NCBI GenBank assembly: GCA_963535465.1
Contig: CAUSWF010000002.1
Span: 64,606 to 128,605 of the forward strand
Direction: 5' to 3'
Source: an uncultured Erysipelotrichaceae bacterium
GTDB lineage: Bacteria > Bacillota_I > Bacilli_A > RF39 > UBA660
Length of the DNA stretch: 64,000 nt
The translations under genes and the position numbers were made by a program. Under the pieces are notes generated by a model, which worked only from the letters and a program-made list of their open reading frames with translations, was not told the origin of the DNA and did no database searches. Position 1 is the first letter of the stretch. Each line of letters starts with the position of its first letter. Of this stretch, positions 23,566-64,000 are shown in pieces.

Positions 23566-23567
23566 CG

Positions 23568-25585: not shown

Positions 25586-25635
25586 AAGATAAATAAAAAT
25601 CTACAGGCAATAATAATTTAATTAAAGCCTATTAT

Positions 25636-27932: not shown

Positions 27933-27966
27933 CATTTTAATAAATTAATTAATTAATTAAATAATT

Positions 27967-31782: not shown

Positions 31783-31787
31783 AAGTT

Positions 31788-34684: not shown

Positions 34685-34694
34685 TATTAAAAAA

Positions 34695-36273: not shown

Positions 36274-36376
36274 CTTTAGTTGGCTACTGACTACAAAATA
36301 GTAGATGACTTCTAGGGCCGTTCAACATGTAAACAACCTAGGTAATGGCATACCTGTTAAAATCAAAGCATGCTAA

Positions 36377-36406
36377 GGGTACTCATAAGAGTGCCCTTTA
36401 TTTTTT
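36377..36406 (+). terminator. rho-independent terminator
   Basis: GGGTACTC-ataa-GAGTGCCC followed by TTTATTTTTT. Confidence 0.55.
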
Positions 36407-36599
36407 ATATAAATCTAAAATAAATAAAGATAAAATTAGTAAATTAATATATGGAAGAATTAATAAGAGAATATGTCATTCCTATAAAACCTGTAGAAAT
36501 GATTGATTGTAGTTATCTACCCAACAAAAAGAGTAAATCACGTGCAGGGTCAACACCCTACGCAAGTAAGAGGAAAAATAAACATAAAAAGTAAATAGT

Positions 36600-37154
36600 A
36601 TGAAAATAGAATTACAATGTGATGATACAATCCCTATTCCTGAAGGTTGTAAAGCAGTTATCAAAGATGGAAATGTAGTATTTGAGAAAGAATTTAAGAA
36701 AGGAGATATACTTAGTTCTGGTAATATAATATTAATATTTAAAGAAACCCATGAAGATAATATAAGTCATTTTCGTTCCTATTATGATATTACTAACCAA
36801 GCTGACATCTGTTGGATTCCTGATAATGAGAATAACTATTGGGTTATAAAAGCTTTTCACCATGCTACTGAAGAAGAAAAACAGTTACTCTTCGATAAAA
36901 TGAAAGAGCAAGGACTGCTCTGGAATGCTGAAAAGAAGCGTGTCGAAAATATTAGGTGGAGAGCAAAGTATGACGAAAAATATTACTATGTTAGTACAGA
37001 AGGAATTGTATTAGAAGATACAGAAGGGTGTCATATTATTGATGATAATAGATATAAATTTGGCAACTATTTTCAAACAAAAGAACACGCAGAAGAAGCT
37101 TCTGATCGTATAAAAGAAACATTACAAAAATATCATGAAGATTTAGGATATTAA
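36600..37154 (+). CDS. hypothetical protein (184 aa)
   Basis: Intact ORF, standard code. Confidence 0.45.
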   Translation: MKIELQCDDTIPIPEGCKAVIKDGNVVFEKEFKKGDILSSGNIILIFKETHEDNISHFRSYYDITNQADICWIPDNENNYWVIKAFHHATEEEKQLLFDKMKEQGLLWNAEKKRVENIRWRAKYDEKYYYVSTEGIVLEDTEGCHIIDDNRYKFGNYFQTKEHAEEASDRIKETLQKYHEDLGY

Positions 37155-37847
37155 ACTATAGCTAGATTTAGACTTGTAGATGTAAATAATAATAGAAATA
37201 TTATAGAACATTATCGTTCTGAAATGTTTCCAGGTGATAAGGGGAATAAGGATTTTGACAAAGATTATGCTGACTGCTTGTAAAGATTCAGTGATGAACT
37301 TCATTTTGTAGATTATGAAAATTCTTCTCCTAATTTAGAAACTCAAATTACTTATGATGATAAAGTTTAGGATTATATGTCAGATCCTATAGAAGATTTT
37401 TATAACTTATAAATAATAAAATATGAATAATAAATTAAAATGTGTACCTTTTATCATTAAAAATGATAATAAAACACCATGTGGTTATGCTAATGGTTAT
37501 GTAGCTGTTCCTATAACTCATTCTTTATATGAAAGATATTATTTTGATGATGTTGAAGACTTTATAGATGTACATGGAGGATTAACTTTAAGTGAACATT
37601 TCGAGTCTTTTAGAAATGCTGATATAATTCCTTTAACTACTGATATTATATCTGAACATAGTTGGGTATTTGGCTTTGATACAAAGCACTACGATGATAA
37701 TAAACGTAATTGGGATAGATTAAATTGTATTGATGAGACTTTCAAGTTATTAAAACAATTAGAAGATTACGATAAAGAAAATTGATTTAAGTCAATTTGA
37801 TAAAAAATTTAATTTTACTATTTTTGAAAAAGTAAATTTAAATAAAT

Positions 37848-37921
37848 GGGTTAGGTAGTGTTAATGGTCAGCACGATTGTTTGTGGCACAATTAGTTTGA
37901 GTTCGAGCCTCAATTTAACCC
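37848..37921 (+). tRNA. tRNA-His (anticodon GUG) with G-1:C73
   Basis: g-ggttagg-ta-gtgt/taatggtca/gcac-g-attgt/TT[GTG]GC/acaat-tagt-ttgag/ttcgagc/ctcaa-tttaacc-C. Confidence 0.65.
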
Positions 37922-38087
37922 CAAATCCATCCTAATACTAAGTATTAACTAAAAATTAATAGCGATGATTAGAAAAATGAAAAAGTTAATTAAGAAATGT
38001 GGAATAATTTATGCTGAAAATTTCTATAAACTTAATAAAAAAGTAATAGACGCAGGATTATTTCCGCTTATCTAAAAAATTTAGATT

Positions 38088-38609
38088 ATGATTAGAAAAA
38101 GAAAAGTAAATTATCATTGTATTTACTGTCTTTGCATAGGAATCTTATTAGGAATTATTTTTAGTAATTCTAAAAAAGAACCTAATGCAAAAGATCAAAT
38201 TGAAATTAAGATGAATGTTATTAAGGATAGTGTTGTATTCGATACTATGATTGTTAAAAAACAAGTCATTACTAAGAAACTCACGTCAAATAGAGCACTC
38301 CCTCTTAACGAAAATAATTTGAGGAAAGTTTTAAAAGACAATAATGTATGCCAATCTCATATTGTTTTAGCACAAGCTAAACTTGAAACAGGTAACTTTT
38401 CTTCAAAAGTTTGTAAAACAAAAAATAATTTATTTGGACTTCGTAAGGGAAATACTTATAGAAGTTATTCTCATTGGTCTGAATCTGTTAAAGCCTATAA
38501 AAAACTTATTCAATCTAGGTACAAAGGAGGAAATTATTATTCTTTTTTAGATAGAATTGGATATGCAGGCGATAAAAGTTATACAACGAAATTAAAAGAA
38601 CTTGTATAA
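38088..38609 (+). CDS. membrane-anchored N-acetylglucosaminidase (GH73 / FlgJ-like glucosaminidase domain)
   Basis: N-terminal TM CIYCLCIGILLGIIF. Catalytic region ...VLAQAKLETGNFSSKVCKTKNNLFGLRKG... matches the glucosaminidase pattern AQA.LESGWG...NNLFGIK. Confidence 0.5.
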   Translation: MIRKRKVNYHCIYCLCIGILLGIIFSNSKKEPNAKDQIEIKMNVIKDSVVFDTMIVKKQVITKKLTSNRALPLNENNLRKVLKDNNVCQSHIVLAQAKLETGNFSSKVCKTKNNLFGLRKGNTYRSYSHWSESVKAYKKLIQSRYKGGNYYSFLDRIGYAGDKSYTTKLKELV

Positions 38610-39167
38610 AGTTCATAAGATTTATTATTATTAATTAAAATTTTTATTAAAATGAAGAAAATTATGATTGTTGCTGCTGTTTTTACAGCTGTAAGTTTTA
38701 CGTCTTGTAATCGTACTGCGAATAATTCTAAACAGACAGTAGATACTGTACGAATTGATACAGTACATACAGATTCTGTAAAATAATCACTAGCTAGCTT
38801 TAAGCTAGCTTTTTTCGTTTATATATGATTGCAATTATTTTTATTATAGGAATATTATTAGTAATATCTTATAAACCACATTTTGAAATAATAAATGGCA
38901 AGTCTTTAATATTATGGTATACAAATCTTAAGAAAGAAAGAAAATGGATCCTTATATTATAATATTTCTATTTCTTTTATTGATTGTATTAGTTACTCTT
39001 ACATTAATATATTATAATACTGATGATTATTTTATTGGTATAGTAATTTCTAAAACAAAAGAATATTATTATGTAGATAATTTAATCAGTAAGCAAGTAG
39101 TAAAATGTAAAAGTAATAAAGAGTATCAAATAGGAGATAGAGTAACTGCTTTTAGAAAATACTTAAC

Positions 39168-39602
39168 TTGGTATTTAGTATGATAAATTATACAATTTAT
39201 ACAGACGGTGCTTATAAACCTAGTTTAAATGCTGGAGGAATAGGTATCGTCTTTTTACGTAATGGGCAAAAAGTTTTTGAGCATTCATCTAAATATAAAG
39301 ATACTACTAACCAAAGAATGGAAATGCAAGCTGTATTAGTTGCTCTAAATTCTATAATAAAAGAAATTGACTCTCTTACAATCATTACTGATAGCATGTA
39401 TGTAGTAGGAACTCTTACTAAAAACTGGCAACGAAAAACTAATAATGATTTATGGAATAAATTAGATATTGCTTTAAGTAAAGCTAAAAAATTAGTTAAA
39501 ACACCTATACAATTTAAGCATGTTAAAGGTCATAATGGGGATAAATATAATGAACAATGTGATAAATTAGCAAGTGAAGCATGTTATGAAATTGAATGTT
39601 GA
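39168..39602 (+). CDS. rnhA: ribonuclease HI
   Basis: IYTDGA...NQRMEMQAVLVAL...ITDSMYVVG...FKHVKGHNGDKYNEQCDKLA. The canonical D-E-D-D RNase H residues are all present. Confidence 0.7.
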   Translation: MVFSMINYTIYTDGAYKPSLNAGGIGIVFLRNGQKVFEHSSKYKDTTNQRMEMQAVLVALNSIIKEIDSLTIITDSMYVVGTLTKNWQRKTNNDLWNKLDIALSKAKKLVKTPIQFKHVKGHNGDKYNEQCDKLASEACYEIEC

Positions 39603-42600
39603 TTTTTTAGTTAAATTAGCTAGTAAATGTGGTAAAGTTTATGAAGAAGAAATAAACAAAGCAGTAGAAGAAGGTAAGTTAATTACAGCTGCAGATGTTG
39701 TTCTTTTTCTTTCTTTACTAACAGATGATATTGTTGGCGGTTACTGTAAAGCTACTAAGTCAGATTATAAAAGTTTATTTTTAGATTATATTAAGTTTTT
39801 ACAAGGAGTAAAAAAAGAAATTGAGCAGAGAAAAGAAATTAATAGAGAAATCGAAGATTCTAATAAGTCAAATTGATGACCTTTTTAAAGATTCAGATTG
39901 TTCTCTTTTAGAAGTAATATATATTATATCAATGACTCTTTACATTTATTTTAATGTAAATGGTATTAATGTAGAAGATTTTGTAAAAGCTCTTTATGCA
40001 GCTGGTGATCACTTTAAAAAACAAAAGAATAATGAAATACAAACATAAATTAGCTGGTTTATTAGCTTACCAAAAAGCTTGGGAAGCAACAAGTTCAAGA
40101 CATCAAGATAGTACAACTAAACCAGGCTCTCAAAAAAAGTGGGGATGCGCACATCCTCATTCTGCTAAGTAAGTTATGATTATAAAAACTAATGATTATA
40201 TTCTTAAACAAATATCAGAAGATTCTTTATTTTGGGATTTAACTTTTTCTAAAGTAATTAATAAAGGTAAAGATACTGAAAGAATAGAATTTAAAGATCC
40301 TATATACGGAGTTACTATAGAATCGGCTAAAAAACGTATTGCTCTATGGCGTACTAATAAAAAATGTTCTGAAGAAATTACTCCACAAGAATTTAATAAA
40401 GTATATTCAAATGAAAAGCATTTAATTGAAAAAGAATTAATTGATTTATAATGAAGGCCATTGAAAAATTAGTTAAAAATTTAAATATATTATTTGATAA
40501 ACTTAACGACAAGTATGATATTAATTATGGAGGTTGTTGTTTTGTAGCTTATATCATTGCTAAAGAGCTAGAAAAAAGAGAATTATACGATTTTAATTTA
40601 CGTATATATGGTTATAATATATTTAATTATTCTGAACAAGAATTACGTAATAATATCATAAATAATATTGATGATGTTCCTTGTAAATATCATACTGTAT
40701 CTCACTATAGTATTGTATATAATGATATTTATGAAATTAATTCTAGAGATAATGATGAAGATTCTGATTTTATAGATATTTATAATTTAAATTCTTTTGA
40801 TATTAAACGTATTTACGATTATGGTGATTGGAACTGTGCTTATTCTATTAGTAATAATATATATGTAGAAAGATTTATTAAAATAATATTTAATAATTAT
40901 GATAAAGAAAGCAAAAATACTTAAATGTAAATTTTGTGGTTGTAAAACAACCCATTTTCTTACAAGTCAAGGAGAATACAAGTGTAGTACTTGTGGTAGT
41001 ACAAACAAAACTATAGCTATAAAAGATATAGTTTTTGAACCTGAATTTGATTTAGATACTAATAAAGAGGAAGCTCAAGAAGAAGTATCTGAATAATGCT
41101 TAGAGAATTAGATTATTTTCTCTATGAACTTAATATTTATAAAATATTTAGTAAAGAAAAAAGATGTGAATTAATCTATTCTAAATTCTATAAAAGCGGT
41201 AATGAATTGCCTGTAAAAATTAAAGTAGATTATTTTCCTAATAAAAAGAAACCAGAAATAATCTACGAAAAATCATTTAATTTAATAGGTGCTCCTAAAG
41301 ATTATATAGAGAGATTGCCTAAACCTAAAGAAAAAAAGAAGAAACATGAAAAAAGAAATCGTACAGTATGCAACAGGAAAGTTTAAGCATTTTGATGGTA
41401 AGGAACGTGAATTTACAGTTTGTATGGTGAGTATTTCTCCAGAAACAAACAACGATATGGAATCATATTACCAGAATATGGATGGAGATTATCTTTTTGA
41501 AAACGAATCTCATATCTATACTAAAGCATGTTCTAAAGGAATTATAGCAAAATGGGAACGCTATGTCAATTTTGGTATTTCTGTAAGAAATCCAAATGAT
41601 TCTTACAATGAAGACATTGCTAAGAAAATTGCTTATGGTAAGGCTAACAGTGTTAAAGGCTATACAGTAGCTTTTGATGATTTAGCTTTAATAAGTAAAG
41701 ATGTAGTTAATGCTCTCCTTAATAATTTTGTAAAAAAAGTTTCTAATGATCCTTCTTTAGCTATTCAGAACTATGAAGAACAAGAAGCATTATATAATGC
41801 TAAGAAAGCTAAAAAGGCTATGTTCAATAGTAATGACACGTTTTCAATATAACAAACTAATAGTATTAATTAGTATTACTGTTATTATATTCTTTGGTTT
41901 TTGGTACTATGGAAATTATAATAATAGTAATACTATAATACATCATTATAAAAAAGATTCTGTTTATTACCAAAAGCGGGATAGTTTGCATAAAGTTAAT
42001 GATACAATATCTACTAAAATACAAACAATAGAACATACTTATGAAAAGAAAATTGAAACTATTAAGCGTATGCCTATTGATTCCGCTTATATCTTTTGGG
42101 CAGACTATATCCAAAGATACAGGATTAATAATGACTCCGCAACAATTAAGAACTACTAATCTAATATTTTTGGAACATGAAAAATGGTCTAAACAAATTC
42201 CTCTTCTAAAACAGCAAATACAAAATTATCAAAAACTTGATAGTTTAGCTTATAAACATGATTCTTTACAAACACAGCAATTAATAGATTTAAATAATAC
42301 TATTGATTTACAAGAAAAAAAGATAAATAAATTAAAGAAAACTAAAAGTTTTGGTATTGGAGTAATAATTGCTTTAATATTAGGATTGATATGCAAGTAG
42401 TAAAGGATAAAAATGGAATTAAATTAAAATTTCCTGAAAGATCTTGTAAAGATTGTCGATCTTATCCTTGCATGCAAAATATGAATAAATTTAAATGTGA
42501 TATAGCTAAATATGGATGTAGAGGATTCAAAATTCATAACTCTACTAACAAGAGTTGAGGCTATATTACATGATTCCTCAGGATACACTACTTACATATT

Positions 42601-42885
42601 TAAAAATATAGATGATAAAGCCTCTTTTTTATATAAATATATAATGTGTACAAGATATCCTAATTGGGAACATAGAGGTTTAAAGATTGGCGAAGAAGGA
42701 TTTTTAACTTATCAACCAGTAAATGAAGGGATTGATAAATGGTTTGATGGTTATAATTTAGTCCCTTATAAATTTTCAGCAAATAGGTTTATCAATTTTA
42801 TTAGTAAACCTAACGAAAAAATAATAGATAATAAATATATAATGTAGATGAGATATTTAAGATATGTAAAAATTATAAGAAAAAC

Positions 42886-43776
42886 ATGGGAGTTTTAGGC
42901 GAAAAATTAACACAAGCAATCAATAAACATGAAAACAATGTAGAAAACTTTATTTGGAAAGGTCCAAAGAAAGAAGTAAATGGAGTAAGAGTACAAGAAG
43001 AAGTCAGACTTATGGATGCTACTCCAGAGCAACTTAATAAATTTTATGCTCATTGTATGTCCATGTTATATAGTAACGATAAAAAGAATCCAGGCAGAAC
43101 AATTCTACTTGATATAATCAAAAGACAAAGACAGAAATGTAATGCAGAATTATATCTTCGTTGGCTCGAAAATAAGTATCAAACAAATATTCCTAACGTA
43201 CGTAAACCTTATCCTAGATTTCTTTATAATAGCGATATTAGAGAAGTTCTAGAAATAAATAAAGAGAGTATTCCACATGAAGAATATGCTAATACTCCTA
43301 TTACTGTTTTAACTGATGGGGTTCCTATGGAATTTAGGGATGTCATGATTCAAGATGTACTTCATGGTGCTGTTGGTGTGTTGGGTTTGTTTGATAGATC
43401 ACATATTTCTCTTAGTTTTATTACTAAGATGGGTGTTTGGTTGACCGATAAAGAAATGAACGAACTTCTCGAAAGAGATAAGGATGGAAAGGCCCGCAAC
43501 AGAATTGATATAATTAAGGAACGTTTTAATCTTCGTAAAGATATTAAATTGTATCCAAATGAAAATGGCTTGAGTTATACAGAACTTCGAGCTATGTTAA
43601 ATCTTAAAACTAAGAAATATTCTGAATTAACAACAGACCAGCTTCTTGTTTTAAGAGATAAAGTATTGTTCCGATTTGAAGACGAGGTGCGCTTTCATAT
43701 TTCTCAATGGGAAGATATTATTAATAAAATTGAACGTGTTGCTGAAATTAAAGGTATTACTTTGGAACGTAATTAA
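42886..43776 (+). CDS. hypothetical protein (296 aa)
   Basis: Intact ORF, TAA stop. Confidence 0.45.
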   Translation: MGVLGEKLTQAINKHENNVENFIWKGPKKEVNGVRVQEEVRLMDATPEQLNKFYAHCMSMLYSNDKKNPGRTILLDIIKRQRQKCNAELYLRWLENKYQTNIPNVRKPYPRFLYNSDIREVLEINKESIPHEEYANTPITVLTDGVPMEFRDVMIQDVLHGAVGVLGLFDRSHISLSFITKMGVWLTDKEMNELLERDKDGKARNRIDIIKERFNLRKDIKLYPNENGLSYTELRAMLNLKTKKYSELTTDQLLVLRDKVLFRFEDEVRFHISQWEDIINKIERVAEIKGITLERN

Positions 43777-43833
43777 TTTAGTAGATTTATTTCCTATAGA
43801 TACATATTCAGCTTTAATTTATTATATTAGTTA

Positions 43834-45108
43834 ATGAATTTATTTGGATATGTATCAAGGGATGAACGTCAGGAACAATGTAGGGTAACTTGGATTAAAA
43901 ATAAGTGTAAAGGATCTATACAAGCCTGCACGGGCTTCGGAAAAACGCATGTAGGACTTAATTGTATTAAAACTTTACTGTCTAAAAGACCTGGATCTAG
44001 AGTTCTTATCGTTGTTCCTACAGACGTACTGCAAAATCAATGGCAAGATATACTCGTTAATAATGATTTATCTTTTTATTGTACAGTTGAAGTTATTAAT
44101 ACTGTTGTTAAACATTCATGGCATTGTGATTTACTCATTTTAGACGAAGAACATCGTTATGCTGCGGATACTTTTAAACAAGTATTTAAAAAAGTACAAT
44201 ATAAGATGATATTGGGACTAACTGCAACTTTTGAAAGACTTGATGGAAGAGAAAAAATTATAGCTAAATACTGTCCAGTTATTGATAAAATTACTGTACA
44301 AGAAGCCTTATTAAATGGTTGGGTATCTAAATTTAAAGAATATTTAGTTCTTATTGATGTTGATGATATTGATAAATATAAACAACTTAATAAAGAATTT
44401 ACATCACATTTTGAATTTTTTAATTTTGATTTCGATTTAGCTATGAAAATGATCGGAAAAGATGGTTATAAATATAGAATAGCTTATAGAGACCAATTAC
44501 TTCCAGACAATGCTTTAGAAGAAGATAGATCTAATATGTTTAAAAATATTACTATTCATGCTATGGGATTTATGAGAGCTATGCAAGATCGTAAAGCTTT
44601 TATAAATAATCATTTAAAAAAGACAGAAATAGCTAATATGATTATACAGGCTAGACCTAATTCTAAAATCATTACTTTCTCTAATAATATTAAAATGGCT
44701 GAATCTATAGCAGTAGGAGAGGTATATAGTGGTAAGACTTCTAAAAAGAAAGGAAGAACTACTATATCTGAATTTAATTTAAAACCTACAGGAGTATTAA
44801 ATACAATTAAAAAAGCTATAGAAGGGCTCGATGTAAAAGGATTATCTGTAGCTATTAATATAGGTATAGATAGTTCTGAAATAAAAGCTGTCCAAAAACT
44901 TGGAAGAATTATTAGAGCAGAAGAAGGAAAAGAAGCAGAAATGTTTAATATCATTATAAACAATACAGCAGAGGTTGAATGGTTTAAACGGTCCCATAAA
45001 AATGCTGAGTATATAACTATTGATGAAGAAAATTTAAAGAAAGTATTATTAGGAAAAGAATATAGTGAATATAAGAAACCTGTTCCTAAACTTTCTTTTA
45101 GGTTTTGA
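43834..45108 (+). CDS. superfamily-2 DEAD/DEAH-box DNA helicase (UvsW-like)
   Basis: Motif I ACTGFGKT, motif II LDEEHRY, motif III GLTATFER, C-terminal helicase domain. Confidence 0.6.
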   Translation: MNLFGYVSRDERQEQCRVTWIKNKCKGSIQACTGFGKTHVGLNCIKTLLSKRPGSRVLIVVPTDVLQNQWQDILVNNDLSFYCTVEVINTVVKHSWHCDLLILDEEHRYAADTFKQVFKKVQYKMILGLTATFERLDGREKIIAKYCPVIDKITVQEALLNGWVSKFKEYLVLIDVDDIDKYKQLNKEFTSHFEFFNFDFDLAMKMIGKDGYKYRIAYRDQLLPDNALEEDRSNMFKNITIHAMGFMRAMQDRKAFINNHLKKTEIANMIIQARPNSKIITFSNNIKMAESIAVGEVYSGKTSKKKGRTTISEFNLKPTGVLNTIKKAIEGLDVKGLSVAINIGIDSSEIKAVQKLGRIIRAEEGKEAEMFNIIINNTAEVEWFKRSHKNAEYITIDEENLKKVLLGKEYSEYKKPVPKLSFRF

Positions 45109-45190
45109 TACATATAATAAAACTCCGAGAGGAGAATAAATATTTTGTAGTTTGAGATATGTTAGTGAACAATTCTTAAGCTAATTTAAG

Positions 45191-45814
45191 TTGAAAAAAT
45201 TTAATTATTCTATTGATGATGATATTGCATTTCAAGAAAAATACCAAATAACCCCTACCGAATTATTTGTACTAAAGATTATTCTTTTATTGCAGGAAGA
45301 TACTCAAGATGAAGATTATCTTAAAAGATTTCTTCAAATTTCTGATAATAAAGAATGTTTTAGAGATACTTTACAATCTTTGCAAAATAAGGGGTTGCTT
45401 TTAAAATCTTATAAAATTCCTAATAAAGGAGAACCATTTAATCCTTATGATATTGCTATTAATAAAGTGCTAACCAAAAATATGCATAAAGCATCTTTTG
45501 ATTTAGGTCAGGAACTGATGGAAGTTTATCCAAGATATGGTACTATTAATGGAGGCATGGTTCCTTTACATGGAGTTTCTAAACGATTTGGAAGTCGGGA
45601 AGATTTTTATCGTTTTTATAGTAAAATTATTAATTGGAATCCAAAAACTCATAATAAAATTATAGAGTTAATTAAATGGGAACAAGCTAATAATATAGGA
45701 TTTTTAAATATGACTGTTTTATCTTTTGTAATTGATCATCGATGGGAAGCATTACAAGATATTAAAGATGGCAAGTTAAGTAATGTTACATTTAATACCA
45801 TAGAAAGTTTATAA
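45191..45814 (+). CDS. hypothetical protein (207 aa), upstream of and coupled to the replicative helicase
   Basis: ATGA overlap with the next gene. Possible helicase loader by position only. Confidence 0.4.
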   Translation: MKKFNYSIDDDIAFQEKYQITPTELFVLKIILLLQEDTQDEDYLKRFLQISDNKECFRDTLQSLQNKGLLLKSYKIPNKGEPFNPYDIAINKVLTKNMHKASFDLGQELMEVYPRYGTINGGMVPLHGVSKRFGSREDFYRFYSKIINWNPKTHNKIIELIKWEQANNIGFLNMTVLSFVIDHRWEALQDIKDGKLSNVTFNTIESL

Positions 45815-46875: not shown

Positions 46876-46879
46876 AAAA

Positions 46880-48886: not shown

Positions 48887-48934
48887 TGCTTAAATAAATA
48901 AGCTTATATTTAAGGTTCAATTTTAAATTTATAT

Positions 48935-53528: not shown

Positions 53529-53547
53529 TCTACTCTAACAATATAAA

Positions 53548-53587
53548 GGGTAGTCGAGGATAACACTTCGGCTACCCTTATTTTTTA
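53548..53587 (+). terminator. rho-independent terminator
   Basis: GGGTAGTCGA-ggataacact-TCGGCTACCC followed by TTATTTTTT. Confidence 0.6.
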
Positions 53588-53648
53588 TAACAACTTGAAA
53601 AAGTAATAATTATTAAAACTCGAAAGAGTATAAATTAAATTTTAAAAT

Positions 53649-55193
53649 ATGACAAGACAAACAACTATTAATAAAGTAATTGATTTTCTAACTCGAATAA
53701 AAGAAGCAGGATATACAAATGTAAAACAATATTGTAAAGATTTTAATGAACCTTATTCTTCTTATGCTAATAATGTAAGTAAAATTATGAATGATGCTGA
53801 TGTTCATGATGATTATAAAAATACTATTAAAACATTAAAATCTGATATTAAATGTAATAATAAATCTAATAATTCTGTTATTAACTCTGAAAAACTTGAT
53901 TCGGATGATCGTGCTAATACAGAAATAGTGCGCGATGAAGAAGGTAAAGTACTTTATTATAAGTTTGAAATTTATCGTAGAGATAAATCTCCTGTAGTAG
54001 GACAACTTACACGTGAAGAAATGAATAGTGTGTATCGTCTTTATTCATACTATGGTGCTAATATTACTCAACGTGAAATTTCTCGCACTCTTCCAGAATA
54101 TTCTTTAGTTGATTTTAAACGCATTCTTAGAGTATTTAATATTACTAAAGCTTGTTCTCCTTTTGCACCTCATATGTTTGAGGAATATTCAGAAGAAGAA
54201 CTCAAGGATATGCACTTACGTTTAAAAGAAAATGACTTTCTTAAGAAACTTGAAAAAGATGAAATTAATGATTTACGTAAATTAAATACTAATTTAGCTA
54301 AAGAATTAAATAATTTTAAGACTAATGTACTTCAAAATGTAATTGATGCAGGTATTGAAATTAAAGATTCTAATTTTAAACCGCGTGAATTTACACAAAA
54401 AGAACCTAATACAAAGAATTTGATCATTTGGTTGTCTGATATGCATATTGGAGCATATAATGATGCTTTTGGTACATATAGTATTGTTGAATATAATAAA
54501 GAAGATATACAACATCGTCTTGATGTTATTGTTAGTAAGTTTGCAAATAAAACTTATACTAATATTTATGTAGTAAATTTGGGAGATTCTGTAGATTCCT
54601 TTAAGAAAGAAACTACAAGAGGTGAACACCCATTGCCATCTGTATGGAATGATAAAGAGATTTCAATGAATTATATAGAATTAATGAAACAATTCTTTGT
54701 AAATTTGCAAGCTAATACTCATTATACTAATATGACTTATCTGTGTATTGGTGAATCCAACCATGACGGTGACACGGGATGGCTTAATAATAAAATTCTT
54801 GAAGCTCACCTTCAGAATATGGGAATATATACTTATATTAGTAACTATTCTATTGATGTATTTGGTGTTGGTAATCATACATTTGTGTTTGCACATGGAA
54901 AAGATAACCAGAACCAATTTAAGAATTTCCCGCTTACTCTTAACGATAAAACAGATTTGTATTTTACACAATGGATGAATGAAAATAATGTTGTTGGTAA
55001 ATATAAATATGTAGTAAAAGGTGATTTACATCGTTTTGCTTATACTGTAGGTAATACTTTTGATTATATCAGTGTGGGTTCTCTTTATGGTAGCAGTAAT
55101 TGGATTACAGCTAACTTTGGTAATACTAAGTGGAGTATTAATTTTATGGAAATACAAGGTAATGACATGCAAATCGGAACAATCCGCGAGTAG
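53649..55193 (+). CDS. Mre11/SbcD-like calcineurin-fold metallophosphoesterase nuclease (T4 gp47-like); TAG terminator
   Basis: Motifs LSDMHIG (D-x-H), NLGDSVD (GD), GESNHD (GNHD/E), FAHGKD. Ends with TAG at 55191-55193. Confidence 0.55.
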   Translation: MTRQTTINKVIDFLTRIKEAGYTNVKQYCKDFNEPYSSYANNVSKIMNDADVHDDYKNTIKTLKSDIKCNNKSNNSVINSEKLDSDDRANTEIVRDEEGKVLYYKFEIYRRDKSPVVGQLTREEMNSVYRLYSYYGANITQREISRTLPEYSLVDFKRILRVFNITKACSPFAPHMFEEYSEEELKDMHLRLKENDFLKKLEKDEINDLRKLNTNLAKELNNFKTNVLQNVIDAGIEIKDSNFKPREFTQKEPNTKNLIIWLSDMHIGAYNDAFGTYSIVEYNKEDIQHRLDVIVSKFANKTYTNIYVVNLGDSVDSFKKETTRGEHPLPSVWNDKEISMNYIELMKQFFVNLQANTHYTNMTYLCIGESNHDGDTGWLNNKILEAHLQNMGIYTYISNYSIDVFGVGNHTFVFAHGKDNQNQFKNFPLTLNDKTDLYFTQWMNENNVVGKYKYVVKGDLHRFAYTVGNTFDYISVGSLYGSSNWITANFGNTKWSINFMEIQGNDMQIGTIRE

Positions 55194-55889
55194 GATAATA
55201 TCTTTAGACAATTTATTAGAGTATTTTAAGTATTTAGAAGTTAATTTTATTTGGACTTATGATGAATTTTCTAAAATACTAAATAAATATAAATACTTTA
55301 TAAATAAATATAACATTACAATAAATTGGGAATCCTATGATCCAGGATTCACTGATTTAGAAAAATACATATCTACAATTGTATTAAAAAGAATTTTAAG
55401 AAATGTGAAATTTGATAATACTTGTTTAGGTATAGTATCATGCAAAAGAAGCAATTTAACAGATAAACAATATTTAGAATTACAAAAATTTTCAGAATAT
55501 TGTAGATTTGATATAAATTTTTTATAATTATATAAATTTTATTATGATTAAAACATGGAAAATTTAGTAGAAAAAGTAATTAAATTATGTGATAATATTT
55601 GTAATGGTAATTATCCTATTGATAATTTAGGTGTATATAAAAGTTATAATACTGGCTTTACTATTAATAATAAACTAGCTATATTTATAAATTCTGATAC
55701 TTTAAACATAAGTACAAATAAAGGTATATTATCTGTAAATATGGATATAGTTGAAAAAGCTAGTATAACTATTGCATTTCAAAAATTAGAAGAATATTCT
55801 AAACAATTAGCTGAAACTGTTTTAGATGAATATATTAATGTAGAAAATACTAAGATTTCTAATATTAATGAATTAGACTGTAATAATTA

Positions 55890-56669
55890 ATGGATATTCA
55901 ATTAGACGATTTACTAAAAGGAAAACAAACAAGAATTAAAGATAAAGAATATTTTGAAACAGAAGCTTATGTAAATCCTTTCTTAGAAAGAATGAGTAAA
56001 ATTACTTCTGATTTTAGAGTTAAAGTAGAGTTACCTCCACAGGTAACTCTTACTAAAGAAGGCGATGTAAATCTTGAAGATATTACTTATAATAGAGTAT
56101 GGTTACAAGCTGTACTTCCAGAAAGTTATAATGTTGATAATCATCAAGATGTAGTAGGAATGGTTTACGGTTTAGATACTAGAAAACCAGTTGTTAAATT
56201 CTATAGAGGTGGATTGAATATGGCATGTACTAATTTATGTGTATTTAATCCAGATTATCTTGATGTACAAGAGTTACAACCAGAAGCTGCCATTGATTAT
56301 CGTCCTTTAGATGCTTTAATTAATAAAGCAAGTGAGATTAAAGTATTTTTGGATAAGTTACATAATCATACTTTCCCAAGAGACAATCAATATATTAATG
56401 AACAATTAGGTATGTGGATAAGAAATAGTCTTAACATGCCTTATTATAATGGAGTTAATAATGTAAAGTTAGCAACTTCTACTGCAATTGATGCATATAA
56501 GCTTCTATTTGAAAAAGAAGCTTCTCCTTATTTTGTACCATCAGATTCTAATACTAATATGTTTAATGTATACAATGCTTTCACCGAACTTATTAGCAAT
56601 GATAAAGATAAGGATATTATGAATAAATGCGAAAAAACACTACTTCTAAAGAGTATTTTAGGCATCTAA
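55890..56669 (+). CDS. hypothetical protein (259 aa)
   Basis: Intact ORF, ATGA-coupled to the upstream gene. Confidence 0.45.
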   Translation: MDIQLDDLLKGKQTRIKDKEYFETEAYVNPFLERMSKITSDFRVKVELPPQVTLTKEGDVNLEDITYNRVWLQAVLPESYNVDNHQDVVGMVYGLDTRKPVVKFYRGGLNMACTNLCVFNPDYLDVQELQPEAAIDYRPLDALINKASEIKVFLDKLHNHTFPRDNQYINEQLGMWIRNSLNMPYYNGVNNVKLATSTAIDAYKLLFEKEASPYFVPSDSNTNMFNVYNAFTELISNDKDKDIMNKCEKTLLLKSILGI

Positions 56670-56678
56670 TTAGTTTTG

Positions 56679-56717
56679 AATTGTGAATTATTTAGACTAT
56701 CTTTATAGTTCACAATT
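56679..56717 (+). promoter_or_regulatory. inverted repeat (candidate operator) upstream of nrdD
   Basis: AATTGTGAA-21 nt-TTCACAATT, ending 15 nt before the nrdD ATG. Confidence 0.3.
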
Positions 56718-56731
56718 TAAAATACTAATAT

Positions 56732-58837
56732 ATGATTGTAATTAAAAGAGACGGACGAAAAGAACAATTTAATGAAAACAAGATTAAGAAAGCTATTTCA
56801 AAATGTTACTTAGCTAATGACGAACTGCCAGATGAAATACAAATTAACAAGATTGTATCAGAGATAGAAAATTTAACTGATGAATTAACAGTAGAAGAAA
56901 TACAAGACTTTATAATTAATGATTTAGAAGATTTAGATATAGCTCAATCTTATAAAGAATATAGAGAACAACGAAATAAAATTCGAGACTTTAAATTAAA
57001 TCAAAAATTTTACAACACTGTTACTGAATTAGTTGATAGGAAACAAAACGAAGCATCTAAAGAAAATTCTAATAAAGATGCTACTCAAATCCATGTAATT
57101 AGAGATTTAATCGCAGGAGAAACTTCACGTAAACTTTATAATGAACTTATAATGCCTAAGAAATTACGTGAATTACATGAAAAAGGAATACTTCACGTAC
57201 ATGATACTGACTATAGATTACAACAAAATGAGACTAATTGCGAGCTATCAAATCTTGAAGATACTCTAAGTAAGGGAACTGTAATGAATGGCAAATTCAT
57301 TGAACCACCTAAGAGTTTAAGAACTGCTTGTACTGTGGCTTCTCAAATTATTACAGCTGTAAGCTCATCTACTTATGGAGGGCAAACTATTACTATGTCA
57401 CATTTAGCTAAATATGTTAAAGTATCCAAAGAAAAGATAACTAAGAAAATGGCTAAGTTAAGAGTTACTGATCCTAATGTAGTTAATGCTTTATTACAGG
57501 ATGAAATTAAAGACTCAATACAAACTTTACTATATCAGTTGAACACTATCTCTTGTACTAACGGACAGAGTCCTTTCATAACGTTATTTTTATACCTTGA
57601 TGAGAAACCAGAGTATAAAAAAGAAACTTTAATGCTTTGTAAAGAGGTAATTAAACAACGCATAGAAGGAATGAAGTCTCCTTCTAGATATATTATTAGT
57701 CCTACATTCCCTAAATTAGTAATTTGTTTAACTGATAAAATGTTTATTGAAGGTACTCCTGATTATGAATTTGCAAAATTATGTGCTAAATGTGTAACAA
57801 AACGTATGGTTCCAGATTTCATATCTGAGAAGAACATGAAGGCACTTAAAGAAGGATGTGTAATACCGCCAATGGGATGCAGAAGTATATTACATCCTTG
57901 GAAGGATAAGAACGGTAATTATCAAATATACGGTAGAAATAATGTTGGTGTAATATCAATTAATTTACCATATTTAGCTCTTGAAAGTAAAACTATAGAA
58001 GAATTTTATGGTAAACTTGAAGATATGATTGACTATGTGTCTAAGACACAAAAATCTATCTATGATGTTATTGTAGATTCTCCTGTAGATATTGCTCCTA
58101 TACTTTATATGTATGGAGTATTAGATAGAGCTAAATCAGGAACTAAAATTAAAGATGTCATTGGTAATTGTAAATGTTCTGTATCTATAGGATATATGGG
58201 AATTGCAGAATGTGTTGAACGATTTGGAATAAGTTATAATACTAAAGAAGGGCATGATTTAGGTATTAGTATTATTAAACATATGTTTGATAGAACTAAT
58301 TACAATAAAGAAAAATATGATATAGCTCTTAGTTTATATGGGACTCCTGCCGAGAGTTTGACCACGAAGTTTGCTAAAGCATTAAAAGTATTTCCAATTA
58401 TCCCTCATGTTAATGATAGAACTTATATTACTAATAGTTATCACATTCCTGTTGAAACACATATAGATGCTTTTAGTAAGATGGATTTTGAATCAGAGTT
58501 TCAGAAATACTCTACAGGTGGTGCGATTTCTTATGTTGAAGTACCTGATGTTCGTAATAATCCAGAAGCAATCTTTGAATTAATGAAACATATATATGAT
58601 GTAATGGTTTATTGTGAGATAAATACTACATCATGTTCAATTTGTTATAATTGTGGTTTTGAAGGTGAAATAGAATTATCAGAAGATGGTACTCATTGTA
58701 CTTGTCCTAATTGTGGATGTACTGATCCTTCAAAATTACATGTTATCCTCCGCTCTTGCGGATATCTTGGTGAGTATTCATTAGGAACATCTATTGGAAG
58801 AGCTGGAGATATAACTAATAGAGTAAAACATTTATAA
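56732..58837 (+). CDS. nrdD: anaerobic ribonucleoside-triphosphate reductase
   Basis: 701 aa. C-terminal Zn ribbon CSICYNCG...CTCPNCGC and glycyl-radical motif RSCGYLG. Confidence 0.85.
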   Translation: MIVIKRDGRKEQFNENKIKKAISKCYLANDELPDEIQINKIVSEIENLTDELTVEEIQDFIINDLEDLDIAQSYKEYREQRNKIRDFKLNQKFYNTVTELVDRKQNEASKENSNKDATQIHVIRDLIAGETSRKLYNELIMPKKLRELHEKGILHVHDTDYRLQQNETNCELSNLEDTLSKGTVMNGKFIEPPKSLRTACTVASQIITAVSSSTYGGQTITMSHLAKYVKVSKEKITKKMAKLRVTDPNVVNALLQDEIKDSIQTLLYQLNTISCTNGQSPFITLFLYLDEKPEYKKETLMLCKEVIKQRIEGMKSPSRYIISPTFPKLVICLTDKMFIEGTPDYEFAKLCAKCVTKRMVPDFISEKNMKALKEGCVIPPMGCRSILHPWKDKNGNYQIYGRNNVGVISINLPYLALESKTIEEFYGKLEDMIDYVSKTQKSIYDVIVDSPVDIAPILYMYGVLDRAKSGTKIKDVIGNCKCSVSIGYMGIAECVERFGISYNTKEGHDLGISIIKHMFDRTNYNKEKYDIALSLYGTPAESLTTKFAKALKVFPIIPHVNDRTYITNSYHIPVETHIDAFSKMDFESEFQKYSTGGAISYVEVPDVRNNPEAIFELMKHIYDVMVYCEINTTSCSICYNCGFEGEIELSEDGTHCTCPNCGCTDPSKLHVILRSCGYLGEYSLGTSIGRAGDITNRVKHL

Positions 58838-59220
58838 TTATGGAAGATTGTATAAAAATAATTCATAATGAAAATAATTCATTTACAGTTTCTTACAAAG
58901 ATAAGTATGCTGATGAATTATGTTGGGAAGAAATGTTAGGTTTAATTGCTAGTTTAACTATTAGTAGTAATAAACCTTGTCAACAATGGTTACGAACAGA
59001 CGAAGAACATGAAAAATTCAATCAATCTTTACGTAAATACTCAACAGTTTAAAAATAAAAAATTTATAAATTATGGATGAAGAATTGTTTGATAAAGAGT
59101 TGCAAAAAAGACTTGGAATAGTTTATCACAAAGAAACTGGCACAGTTAGTGTCTGTGGTTATATTCCAGATCCTATTGCTTATACTAATATAGCAATATA
59201 TAAACAAATCATGGGAATGA

Positions 59221-59703
59221 ATGCTTAACATTTTAGAAATAAAACAATATGATGTTATCAACGGTCCTGGAATAAGATGTTCTATTTGGGTAGCTGGATG
59301 CAATAATCATTGCGAAGGTTGTTGGAGTCCTCATACATGGAATCCAAATCAAGGTAGACCTTTAAAAGAGTGTATTCCTGAAATTAAGAACTATCTTAAT
59401 AATCCGAAAGTAACTGGAGTATCTATATTAGGTGGAGATCTATTTTATCATTTATTTAATGGAGATTATAACGATGTAGTAACATTATTAATGCTATGTC
59501 ATAGTTATAATAAACCTGTATGGGTATGGACTGGTTATACAAAAGAAGAAATAGATAAACGTTTACAAGAATTACGTATACCTAAATTATTAAATGCTTT
59601 TGTAGATGTTCTTATTGATGGACGATTTGATATTACTAAAAAAGATATGAACCTTAAATGGAGAGGTTCCTCAAATCAAAGAATAATTAAAATAAATAAA
59701 TAA
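59221..59703 (+). CDS. nrdG: anaerobic RNR activating protein (radical SAM)
   Basis: GPGIRCSIWVAGCNNHCEGCWSPHTW (CxxxCxxC radical-SAM cluster). Confidence 0.8.
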   Translation: MLNILEIKQYDVINGPGIRCSIWVAGCNNHCEGCWSPHTWNPNQGRPLKECIPEIKNYLNNPKVTGVSILGGDLFYHLFNGDYNDVVTLLMLCHSYNKPVWVWTGYTKEEIDKRLQELRIPKLLNAFVDVLIDGRFDITKKDMNLKWRGSSNQRIIKINK

Positions 59704-62700
59704 CTTAAGCTCACTATATTAATTTATAGTGAGCTATTTTTATGTACTTATGGAGTTAACTTATACAGATGGTTGTATTGCTACTAGTCTTGATATAGAT
59801 GGAGTAGAAAGTATTGATATGAGTATTGAAGACTTTAGAAAAGTTATTCATAAAATTGTTGATAATATTAATGATTTAGCATCACTACAAACTATTTTTA
59901 CTGATTTTGTAGAATGTAATGGTAAACTTGTTAATGAGTATCATTGTGATTGTTGTGGTGATTATGTTACTACTTATACAATAACTATATGAAAAAATTT
60001 AAATTAATTAGGTCCGAAGTTATACCTGTAATGGTTACTTCAACTATAGAAATAGAAGCTGAAAATTTAAAAGAAGCTATAGAACAGGTAGTTGAGGGTG
60101 AAGGTGATATACTTTATACTTCAGAAGATGTAGTGGATTATGCGTATAATATAGAAAAGTATGCTGATAACGCTACTTTATCTATATATGATACTAATAA
60201 TAAATTATTATATAATGATAACGAAACATTTGCTTATGGGCACAATCCATACAAATGTTTTGAATAAATATTAACTTTTTAAAAATTAAAATTATGAATA
60301 AGTTTGAAAAATTAATTAGTGCAAACAGTAATTCAACATTAAAACGTCGTGCAGGCATTATTAGTAATGAAGCTAAAATGGCTCAAGAAGATATTGTAGC
60401 TACGATTAAACGTGCAATCAATCAGGAAGAACTTAAATTAATGAGCCTTACCGACTTTGCTCCTTCACATACTACGAGTTTACAACCAGGTAATTTTGAG
60501 CAAGGAGGTGCTACAGAATGGGCACAAGAATTACAAAAGTGTAAGGAAAATATTTATAATTTGAATATTAAACTTCAATTAGCTAATGATACTTATAAAG
60601 AGTATTTCGCTGAAGAAAATATAGAGGAGGTTTAATCATGGGACCACGTAAAGTTTTTAATTTTAAAGTTAAAGAGATAATTGGATACATTGAACATTAT
60701 AACGGAAATTCAGGTGAAAGCAGTAATGATGAGAATATTGATTCAGTAGATATTTATTTATCTGGAGGTAAAGTAGTTACTTTAGATCTAACAGATGATC
60801 CTCTTAATGGCGATGAACTTGCTAAAATCTTAGGATATAATTCTGACTATTGGGATACTTTGTACGGTAAAGAAAATCCAACTAAATTACTTAGATCTGA
60901 ACTGAAATCCAAATCAACATATAATCCTTATGAATAAAGAAACGGAAGCTAAATACGATAAATTATATGAGAATTATTTAGAAAATTATTATTCTGATAT
61001 TCTAAAAAGAAAGGAATTTTTTGACATCCTAACTAAATATTCTGATGATCTTCCAAAAGATTATGAATTAGAAAATTATGATGTTGAATATTTTTCTTTT
61101 GAAGAGCAATTAATTACGGATATTATCCAATATAATTGTGATGATGCTTATATTTATATCAATATTGATAAAGTAGAAATTGAAGATATAGAAGATATTT
61201 CTGAAAAAGATCTTAATTATATTGTTAAATTTTGCAAGAAACATAATTTAGATATAATAAATATCAATAAAAGAAATTAATTTAAATGATTTTAGATAAT
61301 TTAATAGGGAAAAGTATTTATATTAGATTTAAAAGAAATAGTTATAGTTCTAATAAAAATGTTATTTTATTAGAAGTTAATAACTTTGGTATATGGATAA
61401 AAGAGGGGAATTATGATCATCGTTTCTATCCGTATAATAGTATTGAATATATTTCAACTGATAATTTATAAAATTATGCTAAATGATAAGTTAGATTCTA
61501 TGATTATAGAATCAAGAAAAAGTAATAATTCGGATAAATTAAGAGTATTACAAGCTATTAAATCTGAATTTAGTAAAGTTATTCATTCTAAACAAATTTT
61601 AGATGAAGCTAAAGAATTAAAAATTCTTAATAAAATGTATAAGGAACGTGTAAATTCTGCTAAAATTTATGAAGAAAATGGAAGAAAAGATTTAGCTAAA
61701 ATAGAAAATGCAGAAGCTAGAGAACTAAATCCATTTTTACCTGAAAGAATTAATGAATCTGTGATTATAACATTTACTGAAGATTATATTAAATCTTTAA
61801 ATAGAGATATTTCTATGAAGGATTCTGGGCTTATTATTAAAACAGTTAAAAATAAGTATCCTAGTGCTGAAGGTAAATTAGTAAGTAATATAATTAAACA
61901 ATTTGTAAATAATGGAAATAAATAAATCTTTATTTGAAGAAAGATGTTATTATGAAATTTATCATACTTTATTAAATCTTTTTGAGTATTTTGTTAAACA
62001 TATTAATTCTTATAACGAATTAAGTGAAGAGGAAAAACAACTTTGCCCTAAAAATATATTTGATCAATTAGTTGTATAATATGGAAGTAAATAAACTTTT
62101 ATTCAAACCTATTAAAGTTCCTGTTGAATTTTATTATATGTTGTTAAGACATCTTCAATATTCTATTAAAGATATAGAATCTTATGACGAATTAACTAAA
62201 GAAGAAAAAGAGATATTTCCTAAAGATATATTTGAAAATTTAATAATTAAAAAATAATATGTTATATTTTACAATAAAATTAGCAGAAAATAGTACTTAT
62301 AACTATGAAGTAGATAAAATTAGTTATAATATTGAAAATTTTAATACAAAAGAAATCATATTTTATACATCTAAAAATTTAAATAAAGGAGATATTATAG
62401 ACTTTTGGGAATTAAAGGATTACGATGTTTACTCTGAATATGTTTATAAAATATTAGATTCTAATAAAAATATTGCTACAGTCATAGATTATGATGACAT
62501 TTATGATGTAATTAGTTATGAATATACTAACATGATGATTGTAGTTAGAATAGAACAACTATTTTATGATAAAAAAGAAATAATAGATATTATGGAACGC
62601 ACTAGTGAAATATTATGTGATATATGTGAACTAGATATTCCAATTTACTAATTAAAAATTAATCAATTATGCTATATTTTTCAATACAACATCCTAATGA

Positions 62701-63041
62701 ATACGATCTAGAATTTGCATGTCTTTTATGCGTTTCAAAAAATATAAATGATATTAAGAGTTCTTTAATATTTAAAACTGATGATGATTCTGTTACAATA
62801 AGAGACGAAGATAGTTTAGACTTTTATGAAGTTTATTCTGGGAGTTATGCAGTATTACAATATATGGATGGTTTTAAGTTTAGATCATTTGATATGAGTA
62901 TAGATGCTACTTCCGAATATTATGCAGATTATTTTGATAATGAATCAATAAAAGAAATGAAGGAATGTAAATACTATATTAAAAAAGATGGAAAAATTAT
63001 ATTAGAAAAAGATATAACAGATAACATTAAAAATTTAGTAA

Positions 63042-63752
63042 ATGCATAACATATTAATTGTTCCAGATATTCATGGTAGAACTTTTTGGAAGAAATTAAA
63101 TCCAAATGATGCTGATTTAATTATATTTTTAGGAGATTATACTGATCCATATAATAATGAAAATATAACTCCTGAAATGGCTATAAATAATCTTAAAGAA
63201 TTAGTAAATTTCTATAATAAATATAAGGATAAATGTGTCTTCTTAAAAGGAAATCATGATTATCCTTATATATCAGAATTATATAAAAAGAACTTCGATT
63301 ATTTGTGTAGATATGATTATGAACATGAAGAAGAAATAGTTTCTTTATTAAAAGAACTAAATCTTAAAGATTGTTATATCATTAACAATTATATATTTAG
63401 TCATGCTGGTTTTAATAATCATTATTGGAAACTAATTCAACCTGGATTTAAAGTAGGAGAATCTATTAGTGATGTATTATCTAATTACCCAGAATTAGCT
63501 GCAAGAGTATCTTGGAGAAGAGGTGGAGTTTTTAATTATGGTAGTCACGTTTGGGAAGATTTACATTATTTTCTTGAAAGTTCTCCTAATAAAGAATTAT
63601 CTAAGTATATTCAAATATTTGGACATACCTTTATAAAAGAAGCTATACATCATAATAATTGTTACTGTCTAGATTGTCAAGATATATTTAAATTAAATTT
63701 AGAAACACGTAAATTATGTTATGCTTCAGGAAAAGAAATTACCGAAATATAA
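63042..63752 (+). CDS. calcineurin-like metallophosphatase (Ser/Thr phosphatase-like)
   Basis: VPDIHG, LGDYTD, KGNHD, SHAG, FGHT motifs. Confidence 0.55.
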   Translation: MHNILIVPDIHGRTFWKKLNPNDADLIIFLGDYTDPYNNENITPEMAINNLKELVNFYNKYKDKCVFLKGNHDYPYISELYKKNFDYLCRYDYEHEEEIVSLLKELNLKDCYIINNYIFSHAGFNNHYWKLIQPGFKVGESISDVLSNYPELAARVSWRRGGVFNYGSHVWEDLHYFLESSPNKELSKYIQIFGHTFIKEAIHHNNCYCLDCQDIFKLNLETRKLCYASGKEITEI

Positions 63753-64000
63753 ATTAGGAGAAGAACAAGAAGAAGCATTATCAAGAATAAAAGATTTTGT
63801 AAAAAATAGTAAAGAAATTAGTTTTTCTTTATTTGGGCCTGCTGGAACGGGTAAATCTTTAATGATTTCTTATGTTATTAAATATTTAATAGATGAAGGG
63901 TATGATTATGCTCTATGTGCTCCTACTCATAAAGCTGCTTTAGTTATGAGAACATATACAGGAGAAGATACGACTACTCTTCATAGCCTTTTAGCTTTGT
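63721..64000 (+). CDS. Dda/RecD-like SF1 DNA helicase, N-terminal fragment (runs off window)
   Basis: MLQEKKLPKYKLGEEQEEALSRIKDFVKNSKEISFSLFGPAGTGKSLMISY...YALCAPTHKAALVM. Overlaps the end of the previous gene. Confidence 0.55.
   Translation, partial: MLQEKKLPKYKLGEEQEEALSRIKDFVKNSKEISFSLFGPAGTGKSLMISYVIKYLIDEGYDYALCAPTHKAALVMRTYTGEDTTTLHSLLAL

Follow-up and report, generated by a model that had tools for sequence, protein, structure and literature searches.

An early-block nuclease gene with a conserved amber codon in a crAss-like gut phage that uses TAG in two ways

Results

The DNA examined here, referred to as the window, is a stretch of 64,000 nucleotides with a GC content of about 27% (GenBank assembly GCA_963535465.1, contig CAUSWF010000002.1, positions 64,606 to 128,605). 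Its sequence identifies it as about 64 kb out of a crAss-like (Crassvirales) gut phage genome, probably one of 160-176 kb. The window uses TAG in two ways. In the genes within the first 15.3 kb, which include terminase, lysis and virion genes, TAG appears as a sense codon, while the genes from about 16.1 kb onward, among them the replication, recombination and nucleotide-metabolism genes, are readable with TAG either as a stop or as a sense codon. Between these blocks lie two suppressor tRNA genes with the anticodon CUA. We focus on this split and on a gene that departs from it, a putative junction-resolvase or nuclease gene at 49935..50534 on the plus strand, which carries a TAG as its third codon (49941-49943) in the midst of otherwise TAG-free genes.

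The nuclease gene fills a gap in the standard-code annotation. After the primase gene (48935-49954, plus strand), 292 nt precede the next standard-code open reading frame (ORF), and the gene at 49935-50534 occupies this gap once TAG is read as sense. It opens with ATG AAG TAG AAA GAA CTT AAT ACA, and no ATG, GTG or TTG follows the TAG for about 100 codons. A later start was considered and rejected, as the first canonical start is codon 102 and its use would cost the invariant catalytic residue E92. Fusion to the primase by frameshifting was also rejected, as the primase junction varies among relatives. Without amber suppression, translation of the gene could not proceed beyond codon 3. A preliminary description of the window had stated that the early module has no internal TAG and had named a conserved-domain gene in need of TAG read-through as the finding that would speak against it; 49935-50534 is such a gene, and in its strict form the statement does not hold.

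The amber codon is shared by the orthologues of this gene. An in-frame TAG was present in 79 of 79 orthologous ORFs including that of the window (51 distinct sequences). Of the distinct sequences, 45 have it at codon 3-7, closely behind the ATG, 5 from a single clade have it at codon 25, and one, which differs in its N-terminal domain, has it at codon 29. Seven further IMG/VR loci also carry it, bringing the count to 86 of 86 (the contig of one locus, L164, has a large terminase subunit gene with 16 TAG), and most orthologues have exactly one TAG. The amber has therefore apparently persisted throughout a whole family of crAss-like phages with large genomes, in which it changed position no fewer than two times. 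Over the 58 codons after the TAG, the window and the related locus L009 differ at 8 synonymous and 0 non-synonymous sites, a pattern indicative of purifying selection on the region downstream of the TAG. The AlphaFold2 model of the protein is confident over its full length (pLDDT 90). Since the TAG is retained and relocated down to 35% identity, whereas TAG codons in the late genes turn over even at 94% identity, these observations argue for selection on the codon itself. Public protein homologues bear the trace of the codon as well: 71 of 120 have a Gln within their first 8 residues, consistent with gene calls under code 15 (TAG as Gln), and 30 begin immediately behind the TAG position, which would fit standard-code calls that cut the gene short. 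A tblastn search of the GenBank phage collection with the nuclease matched two records, both without annotation.

The protein was compared with known families. A profile search of PDB sequences returned archaeal Hjc resolvases only (E 0.012-0.039), with the KG..E, D and xK motifs aligned, and the PHROG match was to a family annotated as Holliday junction resolvase (E=6e-8). The predicted fold is of the PD-(D/E)XK type and similar to that of Hjc. The gene product may therefore be described as an Hjc-like junction resolvase or nuclease; it shares these motifs and the PHROG annotation with archaeal Hjc and phage PD-(D/E)XK resolvases. Unlike these resolvases, it has an extra N-terminal NUMOD-like DNA-binding domain and a Gln in place of the third acidic residue. 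The gene is also mosaic. When 49944-50531 is compared with L009 3369-3956, the first ~90 residues are identical or nearly so, and the nuclease domain is far more divergent from L009 and closer to more distant relatives, which suggests a domain swap.

The use of TAG as sense was examined in the recoded block. Nine genes (1-3855, 7686-8378 and 8561-15273) contain 88 TAG in 3582 codons, or 1 per 41, close to the one per 30-40 codons previously estimated. Pooled over the nine genes, TAG makes up 43% of the TAG, CAA and CAG codons. ORF coverage at 8-16 kb rises from 0.36-0.43 with code 11 to 0.93-0.95 when TAG is read as sense. On the minus strand, the gene for the large terminase subunit (TerL; 1..1943; phrog_6681, E=1e-64) has 9 in-frame TAG and continues beyond the window edge at its C-terminus; the genes at 1943-2530 (4 TAG) and 2536-3855 (6 TAG), both intact only with TAG as sense, and the one at 7686..8378 (4 TAG) are on the same strand. 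The heavily recoded block at 8561..15273, supported by coverage and by Pfam and PHROG matches, is on the plus strand and includes a transglycosylase-like gene (9328-10470, 22 TAG), a gene of 810 aa (19 TAG), a GH108 lysozyme (13170-13697, 2 TAG) and a gene at 13921-15273 (19 TAG). TAG density differs widely from one late gene to another, the share of TAG among Gln-type codons in 8561-15273 ranging from 20 to 73% per gene. Among relatives, TerL has 2-21 TAG in all but one case.

The identity of the inserted residue was deduced from orthologues of 85-97% identity. Where these differ from the window at a TAG site, they mostly have CAA or CAG, namely at 3 of 3 such sites in TerL, 2 of 2 in the 1943-2530 gene, 1 of 1 in the GH108 gene and 2-3 of 3-4 in the 2536-3855 gene. 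In the reverse direction, L001 has TAG opposite window Gln codons at 6 of 8 sites. Because TAG swaps with CAA and CAG in close relatives, it encodes Gln in the terminase, lysis and virion genes, presumably through the two phage tRNA(CUA), one of them of Gln type; this agrees with what the preliminary description had proposed for the late block. The long variable arm of one suppressor had raised Ser or another residue as a candidate, which was rejected as close relatives indicate Gln. In a 52%-identical sister clade (L005-L007, TerL region), TAG often stands opposite window Ser (6 of 19 in L007) and rarely opposite Gln, probably as alignment noise at this level of identity. CAA and CAG together account for 3.2% of codons in the recoded genes (1-15273) versus 2.9% in the early genes (18637-64000), and TAG for an additional 2.5% of codons in the recoded genes. 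Since the CAA and CAG share is normal there, TAG looks like extra Gln rather than a substitute for these codons. The base following late-gene TAG codons showed no purine excess.

The two suppressor tRNA genes are in tandem on the minus strand, 5 nt apart and with AT-rich flanks. supA (15876..15948, 73 nt) is of Gln type and was found by both ARAGORN and Rfam, as was supB (15782..15870, 89 nt; Rfam 57.7 bits). supA is 90-95% identical to crAss-like phage tRNAs annotated as tRNA-Gln, and the one examined, from phage cr7_1, has the anticodon CTA too. In supB, 16 nt are inserted exactly at the variable region, which gives it the look of a class II tRNA. Both share U1-A72 and A73 with the tRNA-Gln(UUG) of the phage, features which, by the identity rules of E. 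coli, would fit charging by glutaminyl-tRNA synthetase (GlnRS). In the related locus L101, supA and supB are 100% identical to those of the window and the 120 nt upstream are almost invariant, while identity in the neighbouring protein is 87%. Directly upstream of supA is a G+C-rich hairpin with ATTTATT behind it (15955..15969, minus strand), also kept in L101, and a terminator-like hairpin (15276..15307, plus strand), shared by the late block and the minus-strand tRNA unit converging on it, lies between the two. Upstream of the suppressors on the same strand are two TAG-free genes (16135..18180), the orthologues of which have 0 TAG in 3231 codons. One of them, 16708-18180, is the gene that had been listed as a 490-aa helicase among those of 36.4-64 kb; it is outside that range and has no family match.

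No distinctive promoter was recognized for the suppressors. A sigma-70 promoter scan gave 31 sites versus 27.6 in shuffles, and the Bacteroidetes-type pattern TTTG...TANNTTTG gave 4 versus 5.2. A 9-mer search of 42 intergenic regions returned AT-rich words only, none upstream of supA, and no common upstream motif. An Rfam scan of 15200-16300 with E up to 5 found no theta/HDV-like ribozyme beside the suppressor tRNAs (cf. PMC10879173). In L105, the neighbouring protein of which is 47% identical, a 95-nt tRNA with anticodon TCA (12204-12298) stands in the position that the CUA suppressors take in the window. It may be that amber and opal suppressors replace one another at a single locus in this phage family.

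The rest of the window was examined for its readability under both codes. Standard-code ORFs tile 16.1-64 kb, such that the TAG-free block begins at about 16.1 kb rather than at 36.4 kb, and the block readable under both codes at 18637..64000 (plus strand) holds tRNA and tmRNA genes along with the replication, recombination and nucleotide-metabolism genes. Within 36.4-64 kb there are 47 plus-strand ORFs of 60 aa or more (8339 codons in total), and coverage is 0.91 under code 11 versus 0.90 if TAG is taken as sense. The 47 ORFs end in TAA (36), TGA (8) or TAG (3), in line with the reported predominance of TAA. These ORFs have 0 in-frame TAG versus 281 and 166 in the other two frames, and the late-gene rate would predict about 170; the zero is partly true by construction because the ORFs were called with TAG as a stop. 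The earlier count of about 40 early ORFs without in-frame TAG is thus borne out by the tiling, with the reservation just given and with 49935-50534 excepted. The informative evidence for the split is instead the equal coverage under both codes together with conservation in relatives. Among the identified plus-strand genes are a SNF2 helicase (43834-45108), DnaB (45814-46875), AAA_24 (46880-47578), a RecE-like gene (51452-52477), a 514-aa gene (53649-55193) matching the SbcD/Mre11-type exonuclease family and NrdD (56732-58837), the last two as originally annotated.

Conservation was assessed by aligning 78 early or TAG-free window genes with the stop-to-stop ORFs of 112 related loci, for which TAA and TGA alone counted as stops. 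Only 15 TAG were found in 322,821 aligned early-gene codons. Of these, 12 were at the last or the first few residues, where they are either genuine terminators or codons ahead of the start, and no more than 3 are truly internal. For 73 plus-strand early genes of at least 60 aa and their orthologues, in-frame TAG is absent and both codes yield the same protein, apart from short C-terminal extensions in four genes that end in TAG, the one conserved exception being 49935-50534. By these comparisons the replication genes are readable under both codes family-wide, and the earlier proposal that early genes are safe under either code stands for the window and for the family. TAG codons in upstream in-frame extensions of early genes (42497, 41746, 41289, 41999, 39520, 55021) were dismissed as start-codon or overlap artefacts, being unpatterned in distant orthologues. 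A glucosaminidase-type peptidoglycan hydrolase gene at 38088-38609 (plus strand) is in the TAG-free block and has no TAG, while the GH108 lysozyme and transglycosylase-like genes carry TAG.

The recoded block itself has a TAG-free island of three minus-strand genes (4066..7693), which are a GroES-like co-chaperonin gene (4066-4662), an HNH-AP2 (homing) endonuclease gene (4857-5480) and a PD-(D/E)XK exonuclease gene interrupted by a LAGLIDADG intein (5777-7693). Their 1043 codons include no in-frame TAG, against about 24 predicted from the late-gene rate, and 8 GroES orthologues likewise lack TAG. In view of this island and of the TAG-carrying nuclease gene in the TAG-free block, the code must be set gene by gene and not simply by map position or strand.

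Tandem stops, in which a second in-frame stop backs up the first, occur where stops are leaky or have been reassigned, ciliates and yeast being examples. We explored whether the early genes of the window that end in TAG are protected in this way, as had been suggested. Four plus-strand genes are concerned. The gene at 42041..42400 ends in TAG followed at once by TAA, the one at 28767..29540 has its next in-frame stop, a TAA, as the 6th codon, and the SbcD/Mre11-like gene at 53649..55193 has a TAA as the 12th. The fourth, 42512..42847, had been missed in the claim that every TAG terminator has a close TAA; its next in-frame stop, also TAA, is 21 codons on, within the next gene. In the 69 remaining genes of 60 aa or more the median distance is 8 codons, and the values of 1, 6, 12 and 21 are not significantly shorter (p=0.38, one-sided Mann-Whitney U test). 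Downstream of stops, 7.8% of in-frame codons are TAA or TGA, and 59% of the TAA- or TGA-terminated window genes meet a further stop no more than 12 codons on. Across the family, the second stop (TAA or TGA) comes a median of 6-7 codons after TAG versus 8-10 after other terminators (p=0.03-0.06, with p-values that ignore shared ancestry), and counted as distinct events an immediate second stop was found in 6 of 41 cases after TAG versus 33 of 370. Selection for a nearby TAA is therefore doubtful. TAG-TAA tandems do occur in orthologues of three of the four genes, the weak family-wide trend is in the expected direction, and a similar comment on TAG stops followed by TAA was made for Zeta crAss-like phages (PMC12386605). 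Backup stops in the window are nevertheless at chance level, which sets them apart from those of ciliates and yeast despite the common idea of a second stop, and read-through of 42512-42847 would run on for 21 codons and end inside the next gene, while one orthologue runs on for 299 codons. Read-through of the four genes would add 0-20 C-terminal residues.

The phage affiliation and the continuity of the layout rest on comparisons with public sequences. The TerL ORF (647 aa) showed 28-29% identity to many Crassvirales TerL proteins (tblastn, >80% of the query, E down to 5e-47), and its nearest GenBank records are two human-gut sequences without annotation at 46-50% identity. No annotated phage genome nearly identical to the window was found in GenBank. 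In IMG/VR, close relatives with the same layout are on independent contigs of 156-176 kb. A single contig of 165.5 kb was matched by five query genes representing both blocks (L004, L009, L024, L101, L112), and because of this the layout is not an assembly artefact.

Discussion

We consider it probable that the recoding of TAG to Gln acts as a translational gate that operates gene by gene and that the nuclease is among the gated genes. Early in infection, release factor 1 (RF1) of the host would terminate translation at TAG and only TAG-free genes would yield protein. As the suppressor tRNAs accumulate and are charged by the host GlnRS, the TAG-containing genes would become translatable. The gate would follow the gene rather than its position, as seen in the island of the recoded block and in the gated nuclease among its TAG-free neighbours, and early genes terminated by TAG would merely gain C-terminal extensions of 0-20 residues. 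The nuclease exception supports the idea of gating and does not undermine it. A junction-cutting or homing-type nuclease made early could damage replicating DNA. Whether the amber located 2-6 codons after the start of this gene is a dedicated translational switch, selected as TAG itself, appears to us evenly balanced; such a switch would make the output of a DNA-cutting enzyme depend on the suppressor tRNAs being present.

Several observations weigh against this proposal. The labels early and late are assigned from gene function only. The time at which supA and supB are expressed is not fixed by sequence, the promoter scans being at chance. Since they are downstream of TAG-free genes on the same strand and behind a terminator-like hairpin, they could be made early, and the gate would then be a dimmer rather than a timer. 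In the late genes, the first TAG shows no N-terminal bias (Fisher p=0.31). As for the nuclease, 11 of the 120 public homologues (~10%) are full length without a Gln at the TAG position, and two of these 11 were confirmed on DNA to have no TAG (L186 10001-10555, MARKKLELNT; L187 10001-10561, MRKKELNE), because of which the gate is to be regarded as common and not universal. In addition, although E92, D123 and K138 are invariant, the third acidic catalytic position is an invariant Gln, Q136, instead of Glu, and for this reason nuclease activity is only inferred.

The split could instead reflect constraint only, with TAG drifting into genes translated after the suppressors appear and being purged from genes needed before, such that the pattern is a by-product. 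This account draws on the nature of TAG as a rare and disposable stop in an AT-rich genome, and Borges et al. envisage that stop codons are first depleted and drift then follows (10.1101/2021.08.26.457843). The rapid turnover between TAG and CAA or CAG in close relatives, the widely varying TAG density among late genes and the lack of N-terminal bias noted above are all in its favor. We nevertheless regard it as rather unlikely, since drift fails to explain an amber in 86 of 86 nuclease orthologues, down to 35% identity and at no fewer than 3 positions, next to about 40 neighbouring families without any. The addition of late-gene TAG to a normal CAA and CAG share also speaks against it. It has been proposed as well that suppressor tRNAs are mainly a weapon against the host, causing read-through of host TAG stops and impairing defence proteins, with TAG use by the phage itself being secondary (PMC7886860, PMC12386605). 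The complete identity of both suppressors between relatives with a less conserved neighbouring protein would fit this, and the tmRNA of the phage could relieve the stalling that read-through brings. We find this improbable as the main explanation, as it accounts neither for the gene-by-gene distribution of TAG nor for the nuclease amber, though it is compatible with gating rather than exclusive of it. Finally, a chimeric assembly of two differently coded phages, or sequencing errors that created the nuclease TAG, has a negligible chance of being correct. Nothing was found in its favor, and the comparative data reject it, with the same layout on independent contigs, one contig spanning both blocks and the nuclease TAG in all IMG/VR orthologues.

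Block-wise recoding of TAG to Gln in crAss-like phages ('code 15') was reportedly described by Ivanova in 2014, as later papers cite it. Its restriction to late genes (Yutin 2021, PMC7886860), its possible role as a timer or regulator of late and lysis genes (Borges 2021, 10.1101/2021.08.26.457843) and the proteomic proof that TAG is read as Gln (Peters 2022, PMC9523058) are on record, and the authors of Mgcod described early genes as 'dual-coded' and the switch as 'soft' (10.1101/2022.06.29.495998). The split in the window is thus a correctly recognized case of a known phenomenon in a new genome, one more example of a published pattern, and its interpretation in the preliminary description, with early genes safe under both codes and recoding as a timer, has also been published. 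The window shares with code-15 crAss-like phages the use of TAG as sense in terminase, structural and lysis genes, a phage tRNA(CUA), dual-coded replication genes, a change of code that coincides with a change of coding strand, AT-richness and TAA as the dominant stop. It differs from those described in having two tandem suppressor tRNAs, one with a long variable region, in having TAG-free genes within the recoded block and in having an amber-gated gene within the TAG-free block. Its suppressors are also unusually placed. According to Mgcod they are usually at the 5' end of the recoded strand (10.1101/2022.06.29.495998), whereas here a short minus-strand unit without TAG, which converges with the recoded block, has them at its 3' end.

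The new part is the conserved amber in the nuclease gene, and no paper tying a junction resolvase to recoding in crAss-like phages was found in the open-access literature. The closest parallel is in the TGA-recoded Agate phages, where a group I intron homing endonuclease in an early gene has an in-frame TGA and the recoded stops were read as delaying nuclease production until late (10.1101/2021.08.26.457843). As in Agate, a nuclease gene among early genes carries a recoded stop. Unlike in Agate, the nuclease of the window is a syntenic core gene beside the primase and not an intron ORF, and it has a single TAG 2-6 codons past the ATG in most lineages, family-wide and relocated in two clades. 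For deciding between recoding as regulation and recoding as a side effect of drift, the nuclease gene offers a natural test case with a single codon, having one TAG, a protein conserved after it and neighbours that never carry TAG. If true, the nuclease switch would be the cleanest comparative evidence so far for recoding as a gene-specific phage timer, and it might explain why some related phages keep a tRNA(CUA) without recoded late genes. For annotation, gene callers that use the standard code shorten or miss this gene.

The 156-176 kb contigs of the relatives, the exonuclease intein and insertions in nrdD fit the large 'Zeta' crAss-like group, to which the phage is likened on these features (PMC7886860, PMC12386605). 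Also in common with Zeta phages (Yutin 2021; PMC12386605) are the many tRNAs with suppressors among them, TAG stops followed by TAA and the alternation of TAG and TGA suppressors among relatives, as with the tRNA(UCA) of L105. The nrdD insertion measures about 800 nt and probably represents either an intein or an intron; it is found in several relatives (L013-L018, matching 56732-58837) and is not in the nrdD of the window. ARAGORN identified 11 tRNA genes and a tmRNA gene in the window. One further tRNA-like gene was found by Rfam only (25268-25353, plus strand, 86 nt, 42 bits); it directly follows tRNA-Ser(UGA), its anticodon is GCT (Ser) and its T arm is atypical. The tmRNA gene of the phage (35955-36276, plus strand, Rfam 72.8 bits) encodes the tag AKVIPMNSFAVRIAA in a frame closed by TAA TGA, and we speculate that it might ease ribosome stalling resulting from read-through of TAG stops.

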